Shown here: piece by piece, positions 1,187 to 64,000 of the stretch | How positions within the stretch are numbered: the first letter of the stretch is position 1 | Layout: every line of letters begins with the position of its first letter | DNA from: a virus | Lineage: Duplodnaviria > Caudoviricetes | Length of the DNA: 64,000 nucleotides | IMG/VR virus record: IMGVR_UViG_3300002220_003351 | Span: 1 to 64,000 of that record | Direction: 5' to 3' (one strand) | Notes under the pieces: generated by a model | Databases searched by the model: none | The model's input: the letters and a program-made list of their open reading frames with translations, nothing else | What the model was told of the DNA's origin: nothing | Made by a program: the position numbers and the translations under genes

Positions 1187-4100
1187 ATGTTCAAAGAGAT
1201 CAAGGTACACGCGACATTCAATGAAAGAACGGGTTATGGGGTGCACTCGTCGAGGTTCTTCCCGCTGCTGGACGAGCTTGTCCGTAACGCGAAGGGGACG
1301 GGGGGAGAGGTCCATATCTCCCTTCTGGATACGGTAACCGCCTCACAGGTGACGGAGCGCCACCCTGCCCCGTCGATCCTCTATAATGTCTGGGAATCCG
1401 ACAGCCAGCCTGACGCCTTCATGGACAAGCTCAAACTCTACGACCAATTATGGGTTCCGAGCGAGTGGCAGCGGGCGGCGTCCATTTCCCAGGGGGTCCC
1501 CGAGGAGTTTGTGGTGGTCGTTCCCGAGGGAGTGGACCCGGAGGTCTATAAGCCAGCCGAGGGATCTTCGTCTAACTCTGGTGATATTCCGGATGATAAA
1601 TCGGAGTTCAGGTTCCTCCATGTCGGCCAATGGCAACCCCGGAAATCCACAAAGGAAATCGTGGAGGCCTTCCTCAAGGCGTTTCCCGGCAAGGAGAATG
1701 TCCGGCTCTATCTGTCTGCCGACACCCTGTTCCCCTCAGATACCTACGGATCAACGGAAGAGAGGTTAAAGGCCTATGGGCTCGAAGACCCACGAATCAT
1801 CCCTGTCCACTTCGAGGAGAGAGATGCTTACATCCGGCGGCTACAATCAGCCCATGTGTTCGTGTCATGTTCTCGTTCCGAGGGATGGGGACTGCCTTTG
1901 TGTTTCCCTTCTGATGCCAAGATTGTTATGCCAAGCGGGATTAAGAGTATTGCCGATATTGGTCACGATGAATTAGTGTTCACCCATACTGGTGATTATC
2001 GTAGGGTTCTTACTAAGATGCAGAGAAAGTATAGCGGTGAATTGGTTGAAATTTTAATATATGGAGACTACGCTCCAATAAAATGCACACCAGAACATCC
2101 CATATTAGTTATAAGACGACCCAATAAAAAATACAAAAAAAGCCGGTTTACCGATGTTGATAAAATTACACCTGAGTGGATAGAGGCAAAGGATATAAAA
2201 ATCGGAGATGCCATTGTTCGGTCTGTTCCGTTGGGTTATGAATCGGAAGATATTGTTGACTTGTCCCAAATAGATCAAAGGCTTAAGAAGGATGATAATT
2301 ATGTTTGGTATCCGACTGGTTTTAATTCAAAGGGGGAACAGGGCAAGTATAATCGTTATGTTTCGCTAAAAAGCATGGCGTTTTTGTTTGGTTGGTATAT
2401 TGCGGAAGGCAGCGATAACTGTGGTGCGGCAGTAGAATTCTCGTTAAATTCAAAAGAAGAGCCAATTGCACAGGAAATATTGCGCCAAGCATCTTTGTTC
2501 TTTAATGCGAGGGGTAGTCGCCAAATCAAGGGGAATAAACTTATATTGAAGATAAGTTCTACGATTTTATCTAAGTTTTTTGTTAAATATTGTGGCAAAG
2601 GAGCAGAAAACAAAAAAATACCCAACGAATTACTGTATGGAGATATTTCCAACCTACATGACCTAATGGTTGCGTATTCCGATGGTGATGGACACAAGGC
2701 CGATAAGAGAATTATCATTTCTACTGTCTCCGAATTACTGTCAAGACAAATTGGGGTTGCTCTTCTCAGGATGGGATATAAGTCAAACATTCAAAATTGT
2801 GGGAAGCGATCTGGAAATTATGATCAGTTTGTGATCACTTGGTTGCTTGATAGAAAAAACAATATTCATAGCAATAAATCATGGTGGTCGAGGTACGGCA
2901 TAGCATCTCTTGTGAAAAAAATAACCTCTACTCCATACAGTGGATATGTCTATAATTTGGAGGTTGAGAAAGACAATTCATATCGTTTGGTAAATGCGTC
3001 TGTTCATAATTGCGAGGCAATGGCGAGTGGAGCAGTTACCATCGTGGCAGATTGGGGCGGATCCACGGAGTATGCTGGAGACGCTCTTCTGGTCCGTGTC
3101 CCCGAACTGATAAAGCCTTTCGGGATCTACGGGAACTGGGATGTCCCGGGGCATTGGGGGGAGCCCGACTACAATCATCTTGTCGAGGTCATGCGGGACG
3201 CCTACGAGAATTACCCCCAGCACAAGGAGAAGGCCCTCAAGACCTCCGAGGTTATCAGGGAGAAGTTCTCCTGGAAGGCGGCGGCCGAAAAGGGATTCAA
3301 GGCCCTTGAAGATCTCCAAAAGAAGATGCAAATAACCCCCACTATTTGCCGGGAGCAGATTGTGCCTGTATCAGAGGCCGATCTTAGAATCCAGGCAAGG
3401 AGGCTCGGATACGAGATCACGGGCCTCAAGAAGTCCTCCGCGATCTTCACGGTGGACACCCACCCGGACACCGAAGAGAAGCTGGAAACCCTCAAGGAGA
3501 GCATCGGGCAGATCAAGGCCCTCGGGTATCCGATCCTGGTTACCTCCCATCTCCCCCTCCCCGAAGAGGTTGTGGAGTCGGTGGACTTCTACATCTACGA
3601 CAAGAAAGACATCCTCTCGGGGGACGACAAGCCTTCCTACTGGAGGCAGGACGGGTTCGGGAAAACCGAGTCCACGATCGCCAGCAAGCCGTGCCACGCC
3701 CTCGCTGCGGTCCACAACGTAAGGAACGCGGTTGACTTCTGCCGGGGGAGGTACGACTGGATCTACCAGATGTCCTCGGATGCCGAGGTGGATCTCAGGG
3801 AGTGGCTCGACAAGGTCCACTCTTCCGACAAGGACATGGTCTGTATCCGGTGGGAGGGCCAGCCCAATACCGTCAGCGGCCAGATCACCGCCGCGAGAAC
3901 CGAGGCGATGGACAAGATCCTCCTGAGGATGGAGACCTGGGAGGACTTCAAGAAGGTCTATGCCGAGGACAGGTTCTGCTCCGAGAGGAAATACTTCCGG
4001 CTCATCGAGGAGCATGTCGGTCTGGAGAACGTCGAGTTCATAGACATGGATGTGGGGAACCGGCACGACCAGGTGGATTGGGAGGCCTGGAAGGACGATA

Positions 4101-5314
4101 TGTTCACCTGCCACTTCGTCGAGGGGCCTTTGCTGGATATCAGCGGGCTCTCCAAGAGGGTCTATGATGTGGTCTTCAATGACGGGACAAGGGACGTTTA
4201 TTCCCTCAAGCAGAACGCCGGGATGTGGTCCAGGCCCTCCATCAAGTACTACAAGCCCTGGACGGTGACGGCTTCCCTCGACGGGGTGGAGAAGTTCCGG
4301 CACACGATAGACCTCAAAGGGAAGAAGGTCATGATCTGCATGGGGTCCAAGGCTTTGGGGGACACGATCGCCTGGATGCCCTATGTGGAGGAGTTCCGGA
4401 AGAAGCACGGGTGCAAGGTGGTCTGTTCGGGGTGGTGGCAGGAGATCTTCGACTACCCCGAGATCGAGTTCATCAAGCCCGGAGACGCCATCATGGATCT
4501 CTACGCCTCCTACAATGTGGGGTGCTTCGACGACCAGTTGGACCAGAACGTCGTGAACTGGAGGAGCGTTCCCCTCCAGAAGGTGGCCTCCGATATTTTG
4601 GGCCTCGACTATAAACCGCTTAAGGCGAAACTGAAAGTGAGGAGCTATGAAAACGAAGAGTTTCCAGCGGACTGGAAAAAGCCCTATGTGTGTTTCTCCG
4701 AATACTCGACAATGCAGAACAAGTTCTGGAACCGGCCGGGGGCGTGGCAGAAGGTCATAGACCGCCTTGTCGAGATGGGGTACGCCTGCGTGTCGGTGTC
4801 CGCCGAGGCCACCCAATTAAACAACGTCATCAAGCACAACGGGCAGGGGATCCACTCCACCATAGCGGACATCGCTGGCGCCGAGTTCTACCTGGGGCTC
4901 AACCACGGCCCCATCTGGATCGCCTACACCCTCGGAGTCCCGGCCATCATGATCAGCGGGGTCTCCGAGGAGTGGAACGATTTCCCCAATCCCTACCGGA
5001 TCGCCATCGACAAGTGCAAGCCCTGCTTCAACAATGTGGACATCAAGATCGACAGGGATTGGAATTGGTGCCCGGGGCCGGACAGGTTCGTCTGCACCCG
5101 GGAGATCACGGAGGAGAGGGTCTTTGAGAAGATAGACCAACTGAGGAGGGACTTATGTCGCCAGCCAAAATCAAAAAGGTCAAAGGGGGGTACTCTGTCA
5201 GCACCCCCCACGGAACGAAAGCGAAGAGGACGACCAAGAAAAAAGCAAAGTCCCAAAGAAGACTCCTCAACGCCATTGACCACGGGTTTGTCCCAACTCG
5301 GGGCTACGGGGTAG
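1187..5314 (+). CDS. Multidomain glycosyltransferase precursor: GT4-like domain (intein-interrupted), middle domain, and C-terminal Aah/TibC-like O-heptosyltransferase
   Basis: FLHVGQWQPRKS and SRSEGWGLPL|CEAMASG (GT4 motifs); SKALGDTIAWMPYVEEFRKKH, FYLGLNHGPIW and Cys-rich CKPCFN..WNWCP..FVC typical of the autotransporter heptosyltransferase family; about 1005 aa after splicing. Confidence 0.8.
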   Translation: MFKEIKVHATFNERTGYGVHSSRFFPLLDELVRNAKGTGGEVHISLLDTVTASQVTERHPAPSILYNVWESDSQPDAFMDKLKLYDQLWVPSEWQRAASISQGVPEEFVVVVPEGVDPEVYKPAEGSSSNSGDIPDDKSEFRFLHVGQWQPRKSTKEIVEAFLKAFPGKENVRLYLSADTLFPSDTYGSTEERLKAYGLEDPRIIPVHFEERDAYIRRLQSAHVFVSCSRSEGWGLPLCFPSDAKIVMPSGIKSIADIGHDELVFTHTGDYRRVLTKMQRKYSGELVEILIYGDYAPIKCTPEHPILVIRRPNKKYKKSRFTDVDKITPEWIEAKDIKIGDAIVRSVPLGYESEDIVDLSQIDQRLKKDDNYVWYPTGFNSKGEQGKYNRYVSLKSMAFLFGWYIAEGSDNCGAAVEFSLNSKEEPIAQEILRQASLFFNARGSRQIKGNKLILKISSTILSKFFVKYCGKGAENKKIPNELLYGDISNLHDLMVAYSDGDGHKADKRIIISTVSELLSRQIGVALLRMGYKSNIQNCGKRSGNYDQFVITWLLDRKNNIHSNKSWWSRYGIASLVKKITSTPYSGYVYNLEVEKDNSYRLVNASVHNCEAMASGAVTIVADWGGSTEYAGDALLVRVPELIKPFGIYGNWDVPGHWGEPDYNHLVEVMRDAYENYPQHKEKALKTSEVIREKFSWKAAAEKGFKALEDLQKKMQITPTICREQIVPVSEADLRIQARRLGYEITGLKKSSAIFTVDTHPDTEEKLETLKESIGQIKALGYPILVTSHLPLPEEVVESVDFYIYDKKDILSGDDKPSYWRQDGFGKTESTIASKPCHALAAVHNVRNAVDFCRGRYDWIYQMSSDAEVDLREWLDKVHSSDKDMVCIRWEGQPNTVSGQITAARTEAMDKILLRMETWEDFKKVYAEDRFCSERKYFRLIEEHVGLENVEFIDMDVGNRHDQVDWEAWKDDMFTCHFVEGPLLDISGLSKRVYDVVFNDGTRDVYSLKQNAGMWSRPSIKYYKPWTVTASLDGVEKFRHTIDLKGKKVMICMGSKALGDTIAWMPYVEEFRKKHGCKVVCSGWWQEIFDYPEIEFIKPGDAIMDLYASYNVGCFDDQLDQNVVNWRSVPLQKVASDILGLDYKPLKAKLKVRSYENEEFPADWKKPYVCFSEYSTMQNKFWNRPGAWQKVIDRLVEMGYACVSVSAEATQLNNVIKHNGQGIHSTIADIAGAEFYLGLNHGPIWIAYTLGVPAIMISGVSEEWNDFPNPYRIAIDKCKPCFNNVDIKIDRDWNWCPGPDRFVCTREITEERVFEKIDQLRRDLCRQPKSKRSKGGTLSAPPTERKRRGRPRKKQSPKEDSSTPLTTGLSQLGATG
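1901..3010 (+). mobile_element. Intein with LAGLIDADG homing endonuclease (370 aa)
   Basis: Starts CFPSDAKIV; block B TPEH; FGWYIAEGS and AYSDGDG endonuclease motifs; ends VYNLEV...SVHN followed by +1 Cys; AT-rich versus GC-rich flanks. Confidence 0.95.
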
Positions 5315-54061: not shown

Positions 54062-54725
54062 GGTATGTTGCATATGCCATGAGAGCAAATTACTTTCGGC
54101 CTTTGGTAAAGATTCTCATTTACCTGGAGGCTTAAGATCGTCTTGTAGGGTATGCCATAATAAAAAAAATAAGGAGTGGGCAGATAAAAATAGAGAACAA
54201 GTATATTTAGCCACAAGATCATGGTATAATAAAAATATCCAACGTACCAGGGATGTTGGGAAGATTTGGCGTGATAATAACAAAGGAAAAAAACGCGAAC
54301 AGATTAAAAAGTGGCAAGAAAACAATCCTGAAAAATGGAGGGCAATGCAACGAAAAGGAAGTAAAAAGCGAAGGAGTACTATGAGCGGTAAAATAAGTGA
54401 CGCTTTTTCATCAGCAATTTATAGATCATTACGTTCAGGTAAGTCCGGCAAACATTGGGAAGAGATTGTCGGATACTCAGTAGAACAGTTAAAAGAACAC
54501 ATTGAAAAGCAATTTGAGCCATGGATGTCCTGGGGAAATTACGGGAAGTTTACGTGGCACATAGATCATATTCTCCCCGTTTCTTCATTTAATTATGACT
54601 CAACTGAAAGTGAAGATTTTAAGAAGTGTTGGGCACTTAAAAATCTAAGACCACTAAGGGCGAAAGAAAATCACAGCAAGGGCAGCAAAATAATTTATGG
54701 GGACATATTAAATGCCACCAGATAA
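54045..54725 (+). CDS. HNH endonuclease
   Basis: CCIC..K..SAF..CRVC; WGNYG..WHIDHILP..CWALKNLRPL..EN..KG; AT-rich. Confidence 0.85.
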   Translation: MDEPFKVCCICHESKLLSAFGKDSHLPGGLRSSCRVCHNKKNKEWADKNREQVYLATRSWYNKNIQRTRDVGKIWRDNNKGKKREQIKKWQENNPEKWRAMQRKGSKKRRSTMSGKISDAFSSAIYRSLRSGKSGKHWEEIVGYSVEQLKEHIEKQFEPWMSWGNYGKFTWHIDHILPVSSFNYDSTESEDFKKCWALKNLRPLRAKENHSKGSKIIYGDILNATR

Positions 54726-57165
54726 TACCCCATTCAAAGTTTTATATGACTATACGGACGTCAAGACCGTGAAGAGGTTTGCGCTCTCAAATGACCGAAT
54801 TCGTTGCATAATGGGGCCATTTGGAAGCGGGAAGAGCTCCGGCTGTGTCATGGAGATTGTCCGCAGGGCCAACATGCAGGCCCCCGGCCCGGACGGGATC
54901 CGGAGGACCCGGTGGGCGGTGGTCCGGAATTCCTACGGCCAGCTCAAGGACACGACCATAAAGACCTTCCATGACTGGTTTCCTCCGTCTGTTTTCGGGG
55001 AGTGGAGGGTTACCGACCATTCCTACATCATGACCAAATTCCCGGGGGTTCACTGTGAGGTCATGTTCAGAGCCCTCGATCGGCCGGACCAGGTTTCTAA
55101 CCTCCTCTCCCTTGAGGTCACCGGGGCGTGGTTCAATGAGGTGCGGGAGATCCCAAGGACCATCATAGAGGCCATGGACTCCAGAATCGGGAGGTACCCC
55201 AGCAAGAGGGACGGGGGCGCAACCTGGCTCGGGATCATCATGGACACCAACCCCCCCGACGAGGACTCCTATCTCTACAAGATGTTCGAGAAGGTGAAGC
55301 CCGACGGCTGGGCTATATTCAAACAACCCTCCGGACTCTCGGCCCATGCCGAAAACCTCAAACACCTCCCAACGGATTATTACAAGAACCTCGCCAAGGG
55401 AAAAGACGAGATGTACACCCGGATCTATATCCACGGGCAGTACGGGTACCTCGTCACCGGGAAGCCGGTTTTCACCTCCTTCTCGGATAACATTCATGTC
55501 GCCCCCCACATTCTCCAGCCCCAGAAGGGACTTGACGTCCTTTTGGGGTTCGATTTTGGACTCTGCTATGACAACCAGACGGAGGTTATGACGAAAGATG
55601 GATGGAAGTATTTTAGAGATGTTGTTGACGATGATCTCATAATGACCAAGAACTTTGATACGAACAATATCGAGTATCACAGGCCCCTTAAAAGGATATG
55701 TAAAAAATACGAAGGCGATATGTTTCTTTACGAGAATCATAATGTAAATTTTTGTGTTACCCCGGACCACATTATCCCTTGTAGAAAGCGGCATGGAAAG
55801 TATGGTAGGACCTTTAACGGAAACCATAGAATATCCGCCACCGATTTATTTGACAACGTCTCGAAGCACTATGCTGTTGATGTTCGCGCCGATTGGATCG
55901 GGGATTCTTCTGGTGTGTTCGGCCCCCTTGGCTGGGATGCGTCTGTTTTCGCGGAGTTTATGGGTCTGTATTTAAGCGAGGGAAGTTGTGACAGAAAAAC
56001 CAACAGGATCAGCATAGCCCAAAATAAAAATGACGAAGTATTTAATCAGATGCTGGAGCGTACTGGCCTGAGGTGGATCAGAGGTAAAAGGGCGTGGAGG
56101 GTATCAAACGAGGTGCTGAACGAATATCTATCCCGGTATGGGTATTCGCATGAAAAATATGTTCCGGAAGAGATAAAGGGCATGGATGGGAAGGAGATAC
56201 GGGAGTTTATATTTGCATATACCCGTGGCGATGGTCATGTCAGGACAAGAAGTAACGGATCTGAGGAGCATACTGTATTTACGGTTTCGCGTCGAATGGC
56301 GGGGGACTTTCAGGAGCTTGCGCTAAAGGTTGGTTGGCATGCAAAAGTAAGGGTTGTTGGTCCACAGGATTCGGTGATATTTGAAAATGGTGCAGCAAGA
56401 AAGATTCGCAACAATGGTGGCTACTGCATCACATTCAAGAAGAGGAAAAGCCCATATTCTGAAATCATTAAGACCAATTTTTCAAAGATTCCATATTCCG
56501 GGAATGTTTATTGCCTCACCGTTCCCAACGGTACGCTCTATATTCGTCGCAAGTGGACTCCGAGCTGGAATGGTAATTGTCCGGCAGTATCCGTAGGCCA
56601 GATCACCCCGCTGGGGCAGTTGAGGATCCTCGACGAACTGGTCTCCGACGGGATGGGGTTGAGGCAGTTCTGCGAGAACCAGCTCATCCCCCTTTTGAGG
56701 CAGAAGTATTTCGGGATGAACGTCATGGGGTACGGAGACCCCTCTGGTGCGTCGAGAGCCCCCACGGACGAGACGACCTGCTTCGACATCCTCCACTCCC
56801 AGGACATCGGATTAAGGGGGGTGGAGCCCGCCCCCACAAACGCCATCATCCCCAGGATCGGGGCCGTGGAAGCCTTCCTGAACAAGATGGTGAACGGGGA
56901 GCCCGGGTTCCTTCTGTCCCCCAACTGCCACTTTTTAAGGAAGGCGATGAACGGGGGATACCATTACGAGATCGACCCGAAGTCAAAGGGCGAGGAGATC
57001 AAGCCCATTCCCGTCAAGAACTTCTCCTCCCATGTCTCCGACAGCCTCCAGATGCTCTGTTTATACATCCAGGAAAGAGAATCAAACAACAAGCGGTGGA
57101 AGTCCTTTGCGAGCCAGATGAAGCGAAGGGAGTATCGCCCTGCCAGCACGGAAGCGGGTTATTAG
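54712..57165 (+). CDS. terL: Terminase large subunit, intein-interrupted
   Basis: GPFGSGKS (Walker A), WFNE (Walker B), MDTNPP, GFDFGL|CPA, GDPSG, SHVSDSLQ; about 479 aa after splicing. Confidence 0.92.
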   Translation: MPPDNTPFKVLYDYTDVKTVKRFALSNDRIRCIMGPFGSGKSSGCVMEIVRRANMQAPGPDGIRRTRWAVVRNSYGQLKDTTIKTFHDWFPPSVFGEWRVTDHSYIMTKFPGVHCEVMFRALDRPDQVSNLLSLEVTGAWFNEVREIPRTIIEAMDSRIGRYPSKRDGGATWLGIIMDTNPPDEDSYLYKMFEKVKPDGWAIFKQPSGLSAHAENLKHLPTDYYKNLAKGKDEMYTRIYIHGQYGYLVTGKPVFTSFSDNIHVAPHILQPQKGLDVLLGFDFGLCYDNQTEVMTKDGWKYFRDVVDDDLIMTKNFDTNNIEYHRPLKRICKKYEGDMFLYENHNVNFCVTPDHIIPCRKRHGKYGRTFNGNHRISATDLFDNVSKHYAVDVRADWIGDSSGVFGPLGWDASVFAEFMGLYLSEGSCDRKTNRISIAQNKNDEVFNQMLERTGLRWIRGKRAWRVSNEVLNEYLSRYGYSHEKYVPEEIKGMDGKEIREFIFAYTRGDGHVRTRSNGSEEHTVFTVSRRMAGDFQELALKVGWHAKVRVVGPQDSVIFENGAARKIRNNGGYCITFKKRKSPYSEIIKTNFSKIPYSGNVYCLTVPNGTLYIRRKWTPSWNGNCPAVSVGQITPLGQLRILDELVSDGMGLRQFCENQLIPLLRQKYFGMNVMGYGDPSGASRAPTDETTCFDILHSQDIGLRGVEPAPTNAIIPRIGAVEAFLNKMVNGEPGFLLSPNCHFLRKAMNGGYHYEIDPKSKGEEIKPIPVKNFSSHVSDSLQMLCLYIQERESNNKRWKSFASQMKRREYRPASTEAGY
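55564..56577 (+). mobile_element. Intein with LAGLIDADG endonuclease (338 aa)
   Basis: Starts CYDNQTEVMTKDGWK; TPDH block B; MGLYLSEGS and AYTRGDG; ends VYCLTVPNG...WNGN followed by +1 Cys; lower GC. Confidence 0.93.
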
Positions 57166-60578: not shown

Positions 60579-61553
60579 ATGCCAGAGACAGATCCCAATG
60601 ACAGAGGGGCATTGGAAAAAGTCGACGAAGCGGATAAGGCATTTTCTGACGCATTCGATGCGGCAGGAGTAGGGGAGGCTGACCCGAATAAGGCAGCCGT
60701 CCCGGCAGAGGAGCCCGAAAAGAAGGAGGAGCCTCCCAAAAAGGAGGAGCCGCCCGCCGCAAAAGTCGACGAGAAGGCCGAGGAGGAGAAATACGAACAG
60801 CGCTACAAGTCTCTCCAGGGGATCCACAAGCACGACCGTGAAACCTGGGAGCAAGAGAAAACGCGACTCGTATCCGAACTCGAAGAGGCAAAGAAGGGCG
60901 CTCCTAAAAAAGAGGAACCCACAGAGAAAGAAAAGAAGGCAGCTCAGGACTTCGTTGACTCTCTTACTGACGAGCAGAAGGAGCAACTGGAGGAGTATGA
61001 GAAAGACTTCGATGTGGTTTCCAAAATGGAAGGGCTCAAGAGATCCGTTGAGCTTGCCAAACTCCGAAAAGAACTTCAAGACTGGAAAAGCGAGATTACG
61101 GAAAAGCTCGAAGAGCAGGGGAAGAAGATCATCCCTGTCACGGAGTTCGCGGCAAAAAGCGAGACGGCGGCCCACTTCAACATCATCAGGAACGGTTACC
61201 AGAGAGAGGATGGAACGCAGGTCGAAGGTCACCCCGATTTCGAGAAGTATCGGGATGACGGGTCCTTGCTGGCCTGGATAGAATCCAAGCCCAAGTACAT
61301 GCAGAAATCCCTCAAGGAAACCTACGAGCATGGGATCGCCACCGACGTGGTGGATCTCTATAACGACTTCAAACGGGAATCCAACATCCAATCAGAGCCC
61401 CCCGAAGGCAAGGTCGTCGACATCGACAAGGCCAAAAAGAGGCAGGCGCTCACTTCTGTCCCCACGAAGAAGGGGGCCGTCAACACCTCCCACAAGCTGG
61501 CCGATGACTTTGAAGGAGCCTTCGACGAGGCCCTGCATAAGCAAGGAGGGTAA
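60579..61553 (+). CDS. Putative capsid scaffold protein
   Basis: Acidic/Lys-rich, low-complexity N-terminus, coiled coil, immediately upstream of the capsid gene. Confidence 0.6.
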   Translation: MPETDPNDRGALEKVDEADKAFSDAFDAAGVGEADPNKAAVPAEEPEKKEEPPKKEEPPAAKVDEKAEEEKYEQRYKSLQGIHKHDRETWEQEKTRLVSELEEAKKGAPKKEEPTEKEKKAAQDFVDSLTDEQKEQLEEYEKDFDVVSKMEGLKRSVELAKLRKELQDWKSEITEKLEEQGKKIIPVTEFAAKSETAAHFNIIRNGYQREDGTQVEGHPDFEKYRDDGSLLAWIESKPKYMQKSLKETYEHGIATDVVDLYNDFKRESNIQSEPPEGKVVDIDKAKKRQALTSVPTKKGAVNTSHKLADDFEGAFDEALHKQGG

Positions 61554-61556
61554 ACC

Positions 61557-61577
61557 ATGGCGCTTACCACATACGGT
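61557..61577 (+). CDS. Major capsid protein, exon 1 (MALTTYG)
   Basis: AAGGAGG RBS plus ATG; joined to 62286 it gives MALTTYG-DITPRTAAY, the N4-gp56-type N-terminus. Confidence 0.88.
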
Positions 61578-62285
61578 AAATAAATTGCCGTAGTAAAATC
61601 TGCAAAGTGCTGGAAACCCCTAAAGCCGCCATTGCTACCGAGGCAACAATATGGAGGATGAAACAATGGGCAATCAGCAGGCGACGGATTTGGAACTTGG
61701 ATGGCTGGCAGGAATTTACGATGGAGAAGGCTATATGGGACTGACAAGACAAAATACAAAAAGGACCCGCTCTATCCGGCCGGACATCCAACTCGTGAAT
61801 TGCGATCCCGATGTTATACTGAAGGCGAGGACAATCTTGAATAAGATCGGCATTAACCCCTACATACGGGAAAGAGTGCACTCCAAAAGGGGTGTCGAGT
61901 CCCAATGGAGCCGAAACTATATCATGCAAATGTCCAAGTTTTCAGACGTGAAAAGATTCATCGACACCATAGGGAGTCTGCTCACCGGCGAAAAGAAGAA
62001 ACGGGCCGAACTTATGCTGAGGCTTGTGAACAGCAGAATCCCAAAGACGAGATTCGATCACTATACGAATGACGAGCTCGCCATGGTGGATGATTATTTC
62101 ACGAAGTTAAAAGGGATCAAAATCAGAGGCAACGCAAACACCGATCACCTCAACGACTACCAAGCAGACGTCAGGATGGAAATTCTGGCGAAGGTATAGT
62201 CTGATCTCATGGGAAACCATGAGAGGCGGCAGAAATGACCGCCCGCCCGAAATGGTCAGTAAGCGAAAGCTGAAGTAACAGATTG
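61578..62285 (+). ncRNA. Group I self-splicing intron (708 nt)
   Basis: 5' splice site after U, terminal G; P1 UACGGU/GCCGUA with U-G pair; P3 UCUGC/GCAGA; AAUCAGCAG; P7 GACUA (62155) / UAGUC in AAGGUAUAGUC (62191); P8 GUCAGGA/UUCUGGC; P9 CUCAUGG-GAAA-CCAUGAG. Confidence 0.92.
61651..62199 (+). CDS. Intron-encoded single-motif LAGLIDADG homing endonuclease
   Basis: LGWLAGIYDGEG; IQLVNCD..I. Confidence 0.9.
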   Translation: MEDETMGNQQATDLELGWLAGIYDGEGYMGLTRQNTKRTRSIRPDIQLVNCDPDVILKARTILNKIGINPYIRERVHSKRGVESQWSRNYIMQMSKFSDVKRFIDTIGSLLTGEKKKRAELMLRLVNSRIPKTRFDHYTNDELAMVDDYFTKLKGIKIRGNANTDHLNDYQADVRMEILAKV

Positions 62286-63254
62286 GATATTACACCCAGG
62301 ACCGCCGCCTACAACGCAGTTGAGTTGCTCAAGAGAGCGATGCCCTATCTCTGTCTTGAGAAGTTCGGGCAGGCCAAAAGCCTCCCGGGAAACAAAACCC
62401 AGTCCATGAAGTTCCGCCGCTACAACTCTCTCGGGCTCCGGACGACTCCTTTGACCGAAGGCGTCACCCCGTCCTCCGACAAGATGACCGCGACGGACCT
62501 CACGGCAACCCTATACCAGTACGGTGGTCTCGTGGAAATCACTGATATCATTCAGGATACCCACGAAGACCCCGTTCTCCAGGAGGCCACTGCGGTCTCC
62601 GGCGAGCAGGCGGCGAAGACCGTTGAGACCCTCCGGTACAACGTCCTCAAGGCCTGTTCCAACGTCTTCTATGCGAACTCTGTCGCGGCGAGGACGGATG
62701 TCGCCACGGTCATCACCCGTGCCGACCAGCGGAAGGTCGTCCGCGCCCTTGAGCGCCAGGAGGCACAGCACATCACCTCCATCGTGAAGTCGACCCCGTC
62801 CTTCAACACGGAATCCATCCTCCCGGCGTATGTGGGCGTGACCCATGTGGACATGACCTCGGACATTCGCGGGATGAACGGGTTCACCTCCGTGGCTGAT
62901 TACGGCGGGATCAAGGCGTGGGAAACCGAAGTCGGTGCCTGCGAAGACGTCCGGTACCTCAAGAGCACGATTTTCACCCCCTACCTGGACGGCGGAAGCG
63001 CCACCACGACCGGCCTTCTCACGACCGCCGGTGTAGGGTGCGACGTCTATCCCGTGATGTTTTTCGGGAAGGACGCCTATGGGATGATCGCCCTCAAGGG
63101 GAAGTACGCGATCACCCCGATCGTCATCAACCCCACCCCGAGCAAGTCCGATCCGCTCGGCCAGAGGGGCTCGGTGTCCTGGAAGACCATGCAGACCACG
63201 ATCATCCTTAACGATGCCTGGATGGCAGTGGGCGAATTCTGCTGCACGGACTGA
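62286..63254 (+). CDS. Major capsid protein, exon 2 (N4-gp56-like family)
   Basis: LLKRAMPYLCLEKFGQ, TPLTEGVTP, LYQYG, DPLGQRGSVSWK; spliced product 329 aa. Confidence 0.9.
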   Translation, partial: DITPRTAAYNAVELLKRAMPYLCLEKFGQAKSLPGNKTQSMKFRRYNSLGLRTTPLTEGVTPSSDKMTATDLTATLYQYGGLVEITDIIQDTHEDPVLQEATAVSGEQAAKTVETLRYNVLKACSNVFYANSVAARTDVATVITRADQRKVVRALERQEAQHITSIVKSTPSFNTESILPAYVGVTHVDMTSDIRGMNGFTSVADYGGIKAWETEVGACEDVRYLKSTIFTPYLDGGSATTTGLLTTAGVGCDVYPVMFFGKDAYGMIALKGKYAITPIVINPTPSKSDPLGQRGSVSWKTMQTTIILNDAWMAVGEFCCTD

Positions 63255-63325: not shown

Positions 63326-64000
63326 ATGGCGAAATCAAGGAAAGTTTCTCTGGGGTGCATGGAGTGTGGGAAAGAGTTTAGGGTTCCCCCGACACGAGCA
63401 AAGACAGCAAGGTATTGTTCTGCGAGATGTGCAGATGGACACAGGAATGATAAGAGAAGGGTCAACAAGGAGGAGTTTCGGTGTGGCCGTTGCGGGAAGG
63501 TATTTTACGACTTTCCGTCACATAGGCTCCGACGAAAGTATTGCTCCTACCGATGTGCCGCTCTTGCGAACAGCAAAAGGCGTAACCGCCTTTGTGCTTA
63601 TTGCGGGAAAGTCTTTTCTGTCGTCCCGTCGCAGACCGATCTTTGTTGCTCGTGGGAATGTCGGGTTGCTCGATCAAGATCGGAAGATTGGCCTTTACGG
63701 AAGAAAGTTCTTGTGCAATGCCATGAGTGTGGGAAAGAAATATGGAGGACTCCTTCCGGTGTCGTCAAGGTTAAACACTCTTACTGCTCAAGGGCCTGTA
63801 AGGTTGCTTCTCAAAAAATCACCAATAAAATTGGATCGAGTTTTTATGGAAGCTGGACGTGGTACAGAGCCAGAAAGAGCATCCTTGAAAGAGATGGCCA
63901 CACTTGCCAGAAATGCGGATTTTCTGGACCATATCTCCATGTGCATCACAAGGAATATAAACGAAACGGAGGGGAGGAGGCTGACGGGAACCTCGTTACG
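63326..64000 (+). CDS. HNH endonuclease with four zinc-ribbon repeats, truncated by the window edge
   Basis: Not in ORF track; GGAGG RBS; CMECGKEF..YCSARC, CGRCGKVF..YCSYRC, CAYCGK, CHECGKE..YCSRAC, ILERDGHTCQKCG..HVHH..NLVT. Confidence 0.85.
   Translation, partial: MAKSRKVSLGCMECGKEFRVPPTRAKTARYCSARCADGHRNDKRRVNKEEFRCGRCGKVFYDFPSHRLRRKYCSYRCAALANSKRRNRLCAYCGKVFSVVPSQTDLCCSWECRVARSRSEDWPLRKKVLVQCHECGKEIWRTPSGVVKVKHSYCSRACKVASQKITNKIGSSFYGSWTWYRARKSILERDGHTCQKCGFSGPYLHVHHKEYKRNGGEEADGNLVT

Follow-up and report, generated by a model that had tools for sequence, protein, structure and literature searches.

The interrupted capsid gene

The window analysed here is a stretch of 64,000 nucleotides (nt), positions 1 to 64,000 of IMG/VR record IMGVR_UViG_3300002220_003351, from a tailed phage (Duplodnaviria; Caudoviricetes) of about 73 kilobases (kb). 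Here a scaffold-like gene that ends with TAA 61551-61553 is followed by the major capsid gene, which opens with seven codons, gives way to 708 nt with the anatomy of a group I intron, and then resumes for 322 codons (Table 1). Within the insertion lies an open reading frame (ORF) for a LAGLIDADG-type endonuclease, and both ends of this ORF form part of the ribozyme core. Comparison with related loci makes it very probable that the insertion is a mobile self-splicing group I intron lodged after codon 7 of the capsid gene.

The product of the second exon is recognised as a capsid protein by Pfam (PF25209, 38.3 bits) and as a major head protein by PHROG (PHROG 1357, E 6e-56). Past T61577 the capsid frame continues with a single AAA codon and then TAA 61581-61583, so that translation of unspliced RNA would stop two codons into the intron, as the initial annotation of this DNA had read. 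Early in-frame stops are also present in the introns of the related loci L180, L181 and L204. Joining position 61577 to 62286 gives MALTTYG-DITPRT and a spliced product of 329 amino acids (aa; 7 + 322). When exon 2 alone was used as the query, 5249 capsid homologues were retrieved, and among the best 120 of these most are 329 aa long and start with MA[MLI]T[TV]YG, followed directly by DITPRTAAY. In three of the best 120 the N-terminus is identical to the one predicted for the spliced product of the window. The boundaries proposed initially, a 21-nt exon 1 at 61557-61577 and a 708-nt intron at 61578-62285, are correct, and the claimed exact restoration of MALTTYG-DITPRT agrees with the intron-less relatives in both length and N-terminus.

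The junction is uninterrupted in 42 of 56 related viral loci, and ten relatives carry an insertion of 657-712 nt exactly at the intron site of the window. Every one of the 11 intron-bearing alleles has GGT as its splice-site glycine codon. Among 30 distinct intron-less alleles this codon is GGA (11), GGG (12), GGC (2) or GGT (5). The uniform GGT of the intron-bearing alleles is as predicted, because the 5' splice site needs a U at position -1 to form its U·G pair. Comparative evidence therefore supports a need for intron removal if the capsid is to be made, and the dependence on splicing that was first suggested for this gene is supported by the exact product, the compensatory changes in the intron, the U at -1 and the lack of an alternative start in four relatives.

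Automated gene calling gives another version of this gene. The gene call of the window, P0001, is a 323-aa protein that starts with MDITPRT at TTG 62283, precisely the mis-start that had been foreseen; as the database entry of the window is this TTG-started form, the predicted mis-annotation has happened. In the sequence read upstream of TTG 62283 there is no Shine-Dalgarno sequence comparable to GGAGGG. The triplet before GAT is ACG in L002, L182 and L204 and AAG in L034, which indicates that the TTG or ATG found elsewhere is the end of an intron (…AUUG or …AAUG) and not a start codon. Starts resembling MDITPRT or MPYLC occur in 15 of the best 120 homologues, and a hidden intron was found in each of the three such homologues checked (P0001, P0054 and P0044). 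Automatic pipelines thus mis-annotate the capsid gene both in the window phage and in a group of relatives.

Table 1. Features of the interrupted capsid gene, in window coordinates
Feature	Position	Strand	Details
Shine-Dalgarno GGAGGG of the true capsid start	61545-61550	+	Read from sequence; 6 nt 5' of ATG 61557
Capsid exon 1	61557-61577	+	7 codons, MALTTYG; last base is the U of the 5' splice site (T61577); the same heptapeptide opens intron-less homologues, followed by DITPRT
P1	61572-61592	+	Exon UACGGU 61572-61577 with internal guide GCCGUA 61587-61592; U·G at the splice site
Group I intron	61578-62285	+	708 nt, terminal G 62285; introns of 657-712 nt at the identical site in 10 relatives
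In-frame TAA	61581-61583	+	In the P1 loop; halts ribosomes on unspliced RNA after 8 residues
P3, 5' strand UCUGC	61599-61603	+	Partner 62164-62168; 5/5 pairs compensatory, 100% of cells paired
P4, 5' strand UGCUGG	61608-61613	+	Partner 61674-61679
P5, 5' strand CCC	61618-61620	+	Partner 61668-61670; 3/3 pairs compensatory
P5a/P5b hairpin	61626-61657	+	With the endonuclease ribosome-binding region: GAGG 61640-61643, AUG 61651, GGAGGA 61653-61658
LAGLIDADG homing-endonuclease ORF	61651-62199	+	182 aa from AUG 61651 or 177 aa from the family-conserved AUG 61666; TAG 62197-62199
5' overlap of ORF and core	61666-61687	+	AUG, P5' 61668-61670, J5/4, P4' 61674-61679, P6 61680-61681, P6a 61685-61687
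3' overlap of ORF and core	62141-62199	+	59 nt: P6a', P6', J6/7 UCAAC, P7 GACUA 62155-62159, P3' 62164-62168, P8 62170-62189, J8/7 62190-62196, UAG of P7'
P7, 3' strand UAGUC	62197-62201	+	Opens with the three bases of the endonuclease stop codon; in L186, a single compensatory change (A-U to G-C)
3' domain	62202-62280	+	P9.0 62202-62203 with 62279-62280; P9 62206-62223, GAAA loop; P9.1 62225-62243, invariant 9-nt loop; P9.2 62246-62255; P9.3 62262-62271
Capsid exon 2	62286-63254	+	322 codons and stop; major capsid protein of the N4-gp56 / Phage_capsid_4 type

The group I fold

Eight introns at the same site were aligned (alignment A2) and their common structure was written out as 68 pairs in 15 helices, namely P1, P3, P4, P5, P5a, P5b, P6, P6a, P7, P8, P9.0, P9, P9.1, P9.2 and P9.3; in the structure of these eight introns the window core has no P2 and no P7.1/7.2. 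All of the helices named initially (P1, P3, P4, P7, P8 and P9) were located, together with P5, P5a/b, P6/6a and P9.0-9.3. Standard pairs fill 96.3% of the cells, against 33-42% when the 3' partners are slid by one to three columns. Both sides have changed in 35 of the 68 pairs, and none of 500 shuffles reached the observed values. Covariation extends to the helices that lie within the ORF, with 5/5 pairs in P3, 3/3 in P5, 6/8 in P8 and one pair each in P6, P6a and P7, and it is found in the 3' domain as well (five pairs in P9, four in P9.1 and three in P9.3). As L186, L200 and L204 are possibly out of register in the P8 region of the alignment, the P8 counts may understate its pairing. The pseudoknotted P3/P7 core, from P3 to P9, is thus backed by covariation.

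The ends of the intron are similarly constrained. Six sequences have C-G as the third pair of P1 and two have U-A, and the U·G pair is invariant in 8/8. The terminal G62285, which follows a conserved GUAACA, is invariant in 11/11 same-site introns. The P5a/P5b hairpin has a minimum energy of -8.6 kcal/mol, five of its pairs are compensatory, and its shape was predicted separately in 8/8 sequences. A type-B P4/P6 pairing that uses the region just 5' of P7 was considered and rejected; ORF-less relatives place P4' in the N-terminal codons of the ORF.

A pattern drawn from the core, CAACGACUA, 20-50 nt, AUAGUCUG, occurs in at least 118 viral contigs, and this conserved signature could serve to flag similar mis-annotation. 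The P7-to-P7' pattern is found once in the window, against 0.05 occurrences expected. Introns that share the core motif and have no ORF reach 61-86 bits against Rfam RF00028, and their alignments to this family showed where P4-P6 lie in the window. The stretches in which CAACGACTA, 20-50 nt, ATAGTCTG was found, again at least 118 (L062-L179), belong in many cases to contigs of 200-400 kb. One of them, L097, holds three copies of the core pattern, and many have the 3' domain of the window, down to the GTAACAG end and the invariant loop of P9.1.

The endonuclease and its family

The intron ORF matches Pfam LAGLIDADG_3 (PF14528) with 32.2 bits, above the cut-off of 22.5. Its motif, LAGIYDGEG, keeps an acidic residue at the catalytic position, and none of 27 relatives departs from its G, D, G and G. 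Homologous endonucleases form 49 clusters, and the close relatives, at 55-88% identity, are all intact. A structure model built with 27 relatives reached a predicted template modelling score (pTM) of 0.71 and displays a helix, two strands, a helix, two strands and a helix (H-E-E-H-E-E-H), followed by further helices, which is the alpha-beta-beta-alpha-beta-beta-alpha fold. The best Foldseek matches of this model are I-CreI chains (E ~1e-6, template modelling (TM) score 0.57-0.72), with I-MsoI, I-CvuI and I-TnaI next. On the strength of the model, the ORF product is predicted to be an I-CreI-like, single-motif LAGLIDADG homing endonuclease.

Among closely related capsid alleles the intron is present in some and absent in others, always at one site. 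A second endonuclease lineage occupies this same site in L001, L002 and L034. By BLASTP its members share only the motif region with the enzyme of the window, though both match PHROG 5046. Their ORFs cross J5/4 in the same phase as that of the window and P7 in a different one.

Overlap of the reading frame with the ribozyme core

The body of the ORF, about 450 nt, is housed in the P6a loop, and its ends run through the core on either side. Coding sequence that doubles as core amounts to 81 nt when counted from AUG 61666, which lies directly 5' of P5' and is conserved across the family as M-G/D-N-Q-Q, or to 96 nt from AUG 61651. The initial annotation had the ORF pass through P7, P3 and P8 and end on a TAG inside the conserved core. 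Indeed, it crosses P6', J6/7, P7, P3', both P8 strands and J8/7, and TAG 62197-62199 constitutes the first three bases of P7' TAGTC. The overlap is real and larger than had been claimed, extending at the 5' end over P5', J5/4, P4' and P6 as well.

The overlapping codons bear the marks of an RNA constraint. In 49 distinct family sequences, the N-Q-Q residues are encoded by AAT/CAG/CAG in 48, 49 and 48 cases, respectively; in the same 49, each invariant residue of the LAGLIDADG motif is written with two to six synonymous codons. TGCTGG, the 5' strand of P4, is present in 47 of the 49 (0.11 occurrences are expected per 160 nt), in most of those 47 at 58-77 nt, and mostly at about 64 nt, 5' of the Asn codon. 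The shared J6/7-P7 segment is read in phase 2 in the window and L180-L184, in phase 1 in L186 and L204, and in phase 0 in L200, L001, L002 and L034. Where P5 has undergone compensatory change, the encoded residue has changed with it, the pairing partner deciding whether the codon before Asn specifies G, D or R. Frozen codons, a fixed distance to P4 and the use of three frames show that the RNA and not the protein constrains the overlap codons.

This overlap is common to the endonuclease family and is best explained by 'core creep', an idea put forward by Edgell, Chalamcharla and Belfort in 2011 (PMC3073962). As that idea leads one to expect, the ORF ends vary in frame and stop position over a conserved RNA core. 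The same-site introns display four stop arrangements: a TAG in P7', a TGA over the first base of P7' (L002), a TGA 6 nt 5' of P7', and a stop near the 3' splice site (L186). In the structure model, the predicted local distance difference test (pLDDT) score falls below 50 at residues 1-8 and 158-182, and the codons that overlap the core are those of residues 1-13 and 164-182. Since the low-confidence tails largely coincide with the overlap codons, the overlap adds tails to a normal domain, which 'core creep' also predicts.

L186 (1412-2068) is peculiar at both ends. It has no AUG near P5 in the endonuclease frame, with UUG at the P5' position, and this frame reads through P7', P9 and P9.1 to a stop about 10 nt before the 3' splice site.

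Alternative explanations

If no splicing took place, the ORF would be a free-standing endonuclease gene between the scaffold and capsid genes, the capsid would be made from TTG 62283 as a 323-aa protein, and exon 1 would be a dead remnant. TTG is a legal bacterial start codon, and automated gene calling gave exactly this model (P0001). However, the ORF is set within a complete group I fold in which 35 pairs covary, splicing exactly restores seven N-terminal residues that are conserved in intron-less homologues, and U at -1 is fixed in intron-bearing alleles only. TTG 62283 moreover lacks a Shine-Dalgarno site, and its triplet is ACG or AAG in relatives, all of which leaves this explanation scarcely credible. 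A second objection grants the intron and questions the overlap, which might be an annotation artefact if the real endonuclease started 3' of P6 and had its 5' end confined to the P6a loop. The review that describes 'core creep' itself warns that many extensive overlaps may reflect mis-called ORF ends (PMC3073962), and the window has an in-frame TTG at codon 14, just 3' of P6a. This TTG, however, is CTG or ATA in relatives, the AUG before G/D-N-Q-Q is near-universal in the family, and a start at codon 14 would shorten the first model helix (residues 13-26) by its opening residue. At the other end, any ribosome must read from P6' to J8/7, as there is no in-frame stop before TAG 62197. We consider an artefact of this kind very improbable.

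It may also be that the intron splices and that the ORF product serves mainly as a maturase that binds and stabilises its own ribozyme, or that the ORF is in decay and has ceased to drive homing. Maturase-like activity is known for the LAGLIDADG protein of the Thermotoga neapolitana 23S ribosomal RNA (rRNA) intron (PMC3984707), the ORF product has I-TnaI and I-AniI among its weak matches by sequence or structure, and no palindromic target was seen in 30 intron-less alleles. Against these readings, the ORF is intact, keeps the acidic residue of its motif and has intact relatives at 55-88% identity, and the patchy presence of the intron among close capsid alleles is the usual signature of active homing. 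A maturase role would, in any case, be compatible with endonuclease activity. Either of these roles for the ORF, mainly maturase or decaying remnant, is in our judgement unlikely.

Several observations weigh against a mobile, self-splicing intron whose endonuclease gene overlaps its core, or blur parts of that picture. Splicing is inferred from comparison only. Against Rfam RF00028 the window attains 17.4 bits (E 0.28), the gathering score being 50, and nothing in the whole window reaches that score. This sub-threshold match nonetheless aligns P3', P8, J8/7, P7' and P9 well to the consensus, and its low score is likely due to the ORF body of about 450 nt, which splits the core at P6; the missed gathering score is a detection threshold rather than a structural feature. 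P4, P9.0 and most of P7 are invariant in the eight-sequence set and, as they never vary, contribute no covariation evidence. About three pairs of a P10 can be drawn by eye, but they are not conserved among relatives and are not claimed here. The endonuclease may start at 61651 or at 61666. A pseudo-palindrome search around the insertion site in the 30 intron-less alleles gave at best 7/11 matches, at +4, and hence no clear pseudo-palindromic target, though a homodimer might prefer one. Finally, the P5a hairpin of the window contains a single mismatch, and the GAGG that serves AUG 61651 is mostly in its loop, so that sequestration of the ribosome-binding site may be partial.

Proposed mechanism and implications

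On the preferred explanation, a mobile self-splicing intron in the capsid gene, the late transcript would fold into a compact group I ribozyme composed of P1 and P3-P9.3. Guanosine would attack after U61577, within the U·G pair of P1, and the exons would be joined after the terminal G 62285 to yield the messenger RNA for the 329-aa capsid protein. Ribosomes on unspliced RNA would stop at the TAA in the P1 loop. When a relative with an intron-less capsid allele co-infects the cell, the endonuclease, presumably a homodimer, would cut that allele close to the junction, and repair of the cut allele would copy the intron in (homing). The ends of the ORF would have been extended into the ribozyme, where the RNA constraint would now dictate their codons.

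Such an arrangement would bring translation and catalysis into conflict. A ribosome on the endonuclease frame would unwind P5-P4-P6 and later P6-P7-P3-P8, and the folded P5a/P5 helices would limit initiation. Because this ribosome must unwind the core, endonuclease translation and catalysis are expected to be mutually exclusive on each RNA molecule. Since the capsid AUG and the 5' splice site are just 21 nt apart, a ribosome that initiates or terminates there would also cover P1. By analogy with I-TevI and its td intron (PMC3073962), it can reasonably be inferred that endonuclease translation competes with ribozyme folding.

A broader proposal, possible but doubtful at this stage, is that ribozyme and endonuclease form an old co-inherited unit that moves as a whole to new genes, with the folded ribozyme as a built-in switch. 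Of 49 distinct members, 47 keep the distance to P4, even where protein identity drops to about 30% and across introns that interrupt many genes; in those 47, P5a, P5', J5/4 and P4' supply the ribosome-binding site, the start and the first codons. If the proposal were true, RNA molecules in the catalytic fold would yield no endonuclease. A ribosome that starts at the capsid AUG can reach the 5' splice site of the capsid gene, and capsid output could then depend on splicing kinetics.

The family constitutes an unusually clean natural data set for 'core creep' and for dual constraint on RNA and protein, in which a single core serves related endonuclease genes in three frames, synonymous sites are frozen by RNA pairing, and compensatory base changes force amino-acid changes. 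It is also a candidate system in which to study the balance that phages strike between endonuclease translation and the splicing of an essential and very highly expressed gene.

Other putative mobile elements in the window and in relatives

Additional putative selfish elements lie close to the capsid intron and elsewhere in the genome. Directly 3' of the capsid gene, at 63326-64000 (+) and continuing past the end of the window, is a gene for a cysteine-rich HNH endonuclease (PHROG 1271, E 1e-27; Pfam HNH 19.2 bits, below the cut-off); an HNH gene also occurs at the equivalent position in relatives such as L002. With the intron endonuclease, this leaves the capsid gene flanked and interrupted by selfish nucleases. 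A LAGLIDADG_3 domain at residues 496-549 of the large terminase subunit (817 aa; 54712-57165, +) points to an intein in this gene. At 1187-5314 (+), a protein of 1375 aa that resembles glycosyltransferases also matches Intein_splicing at residues 274-608, below the Pfam cut-off, and LAGLIDADG_3, and likely holds a second intein of the same genome.

Capsid genes of this family are interrupted at other sites as well. Those of L036, L038-L041, L043, L045, L047 and L054 have codon 7 intact and carry, between codon 35 and the next (…LEKFG/QAKS…), a second insertion of about 0.95 kb, which encodes a LAGLIDADG-type ORF of about 290 aa (for example L039:1550-2500) and, in L039, matches RF00028 below threshold (29.3 bits, E 4e-4). 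A third insertion site, after …TATLYQYG, is used in L053 (1925-2560). The ORF there is a LAGLIDADG gene similar to those of L001, L002 and L034, accompanied by the same P7-P3'-P8-P7' core motif and an RF00028 match of 26.1 bits (E 3e-3).

Comparison with known systems

The ribozyme and endonuclease lineage appears to be known only from metagenomes. Among 50,697 GenBank phage records, no sequence relative of the endonuclease or ribozyme was found apart from one weak protein match and one 41-nt match. The latter, in Ralstonia phage BOESR1 (OQ389126.1:12422-12462), is 88% identical to P8-J8/7-P7'-P9 of the window and lies inside an annotated DNA polymerase I gene, which may contain an unannotated group I intron.

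Interruption of the major capsid gene by a group I intron is shared with LittleE, the lactococcal phage Tuc2009 and the crAss-like Delta/Zeta phages, and capsid-gene introns are reported to be typical of crAss-like Delta-group phages (PMC7886860). In mycobacteriophage LittleE, splicing was established by reverse transcription polymerase chain reaction and N-terminal sequencing, and the intron encodes a 177-aa I-CreI-like LAGLIDADG protein (PMC3706429). Unlike that of the window, the LittleE endonuclease gene is on the opposite strand (PMC3706429), so that no co-translation through the ribozyme occurs. The window enzyme itself resembles I-CreI, the homodimeric endonuclease of a Chlamydomonas 23S rRNA intron, in having one motif per chain and can be aligned with it over about 156 columns; however, identity is only 14-18%, and the window protein has extra core-encoded tails at both ends.

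Closer parallels to the overlap come from introns of other genes. Reviews have tabulated ORF/core overlaps, including overlaps at both ORF ends, with 20 nt in T4 td/I-TevI, 56 nt in Bacillus thuringiensis nrdF and 81 nt in the LAGLIDADG intron of Synechococcus lividus 23S rRNA (PMC3073962; see also Figure 2b of PMC3984707). Like the window intron, T4 td/I-TevI is a group I intron in a phage protein gene whose ORF enters core helices, with a ribosome-binding site in a hairpin and an early in-frame stop, and ribosome occupancy of the td core impairs splicing (PMC3073962). In contrast, I-TevI is a GIY-YIG enzyme with an overlap of about 20 nt (P6a, P7) at the 3' end only, whereas the window enzyme is of the LAGLIDADG type and overlaps its core by 81-96 nt at both ends, in a capsid gene, 21 nt from the start codon and with a core that has no P2 or P7.1/7.2. 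The S. lividus intron likewise has a LAGLIDADG ORF over 81 nt of core (P6, P7, P3, P8, P9.0 and P9; PMC3073962, Table 1). By description, however, its ORF is listed as inserted in P8, while that of the window has its body in the P6a loop and overlaps P5', P4' and P6 at the 5' end as well; the S. lividus intron also lies in an rRNA gene, which entails no exon translation. Early in-frame stops and hairpin-sequestered ribosome-binding sites are equally documented in reviews (PMC3073962, PMC3984707). Given that overlap, early stops and sequestered ribosome-binding sites had already been described, the arrangement is less unusual than first proposed: the capsid intron adds a clear new instance to a known class, introduces no new mechanism and leaves current concepts unchanged.

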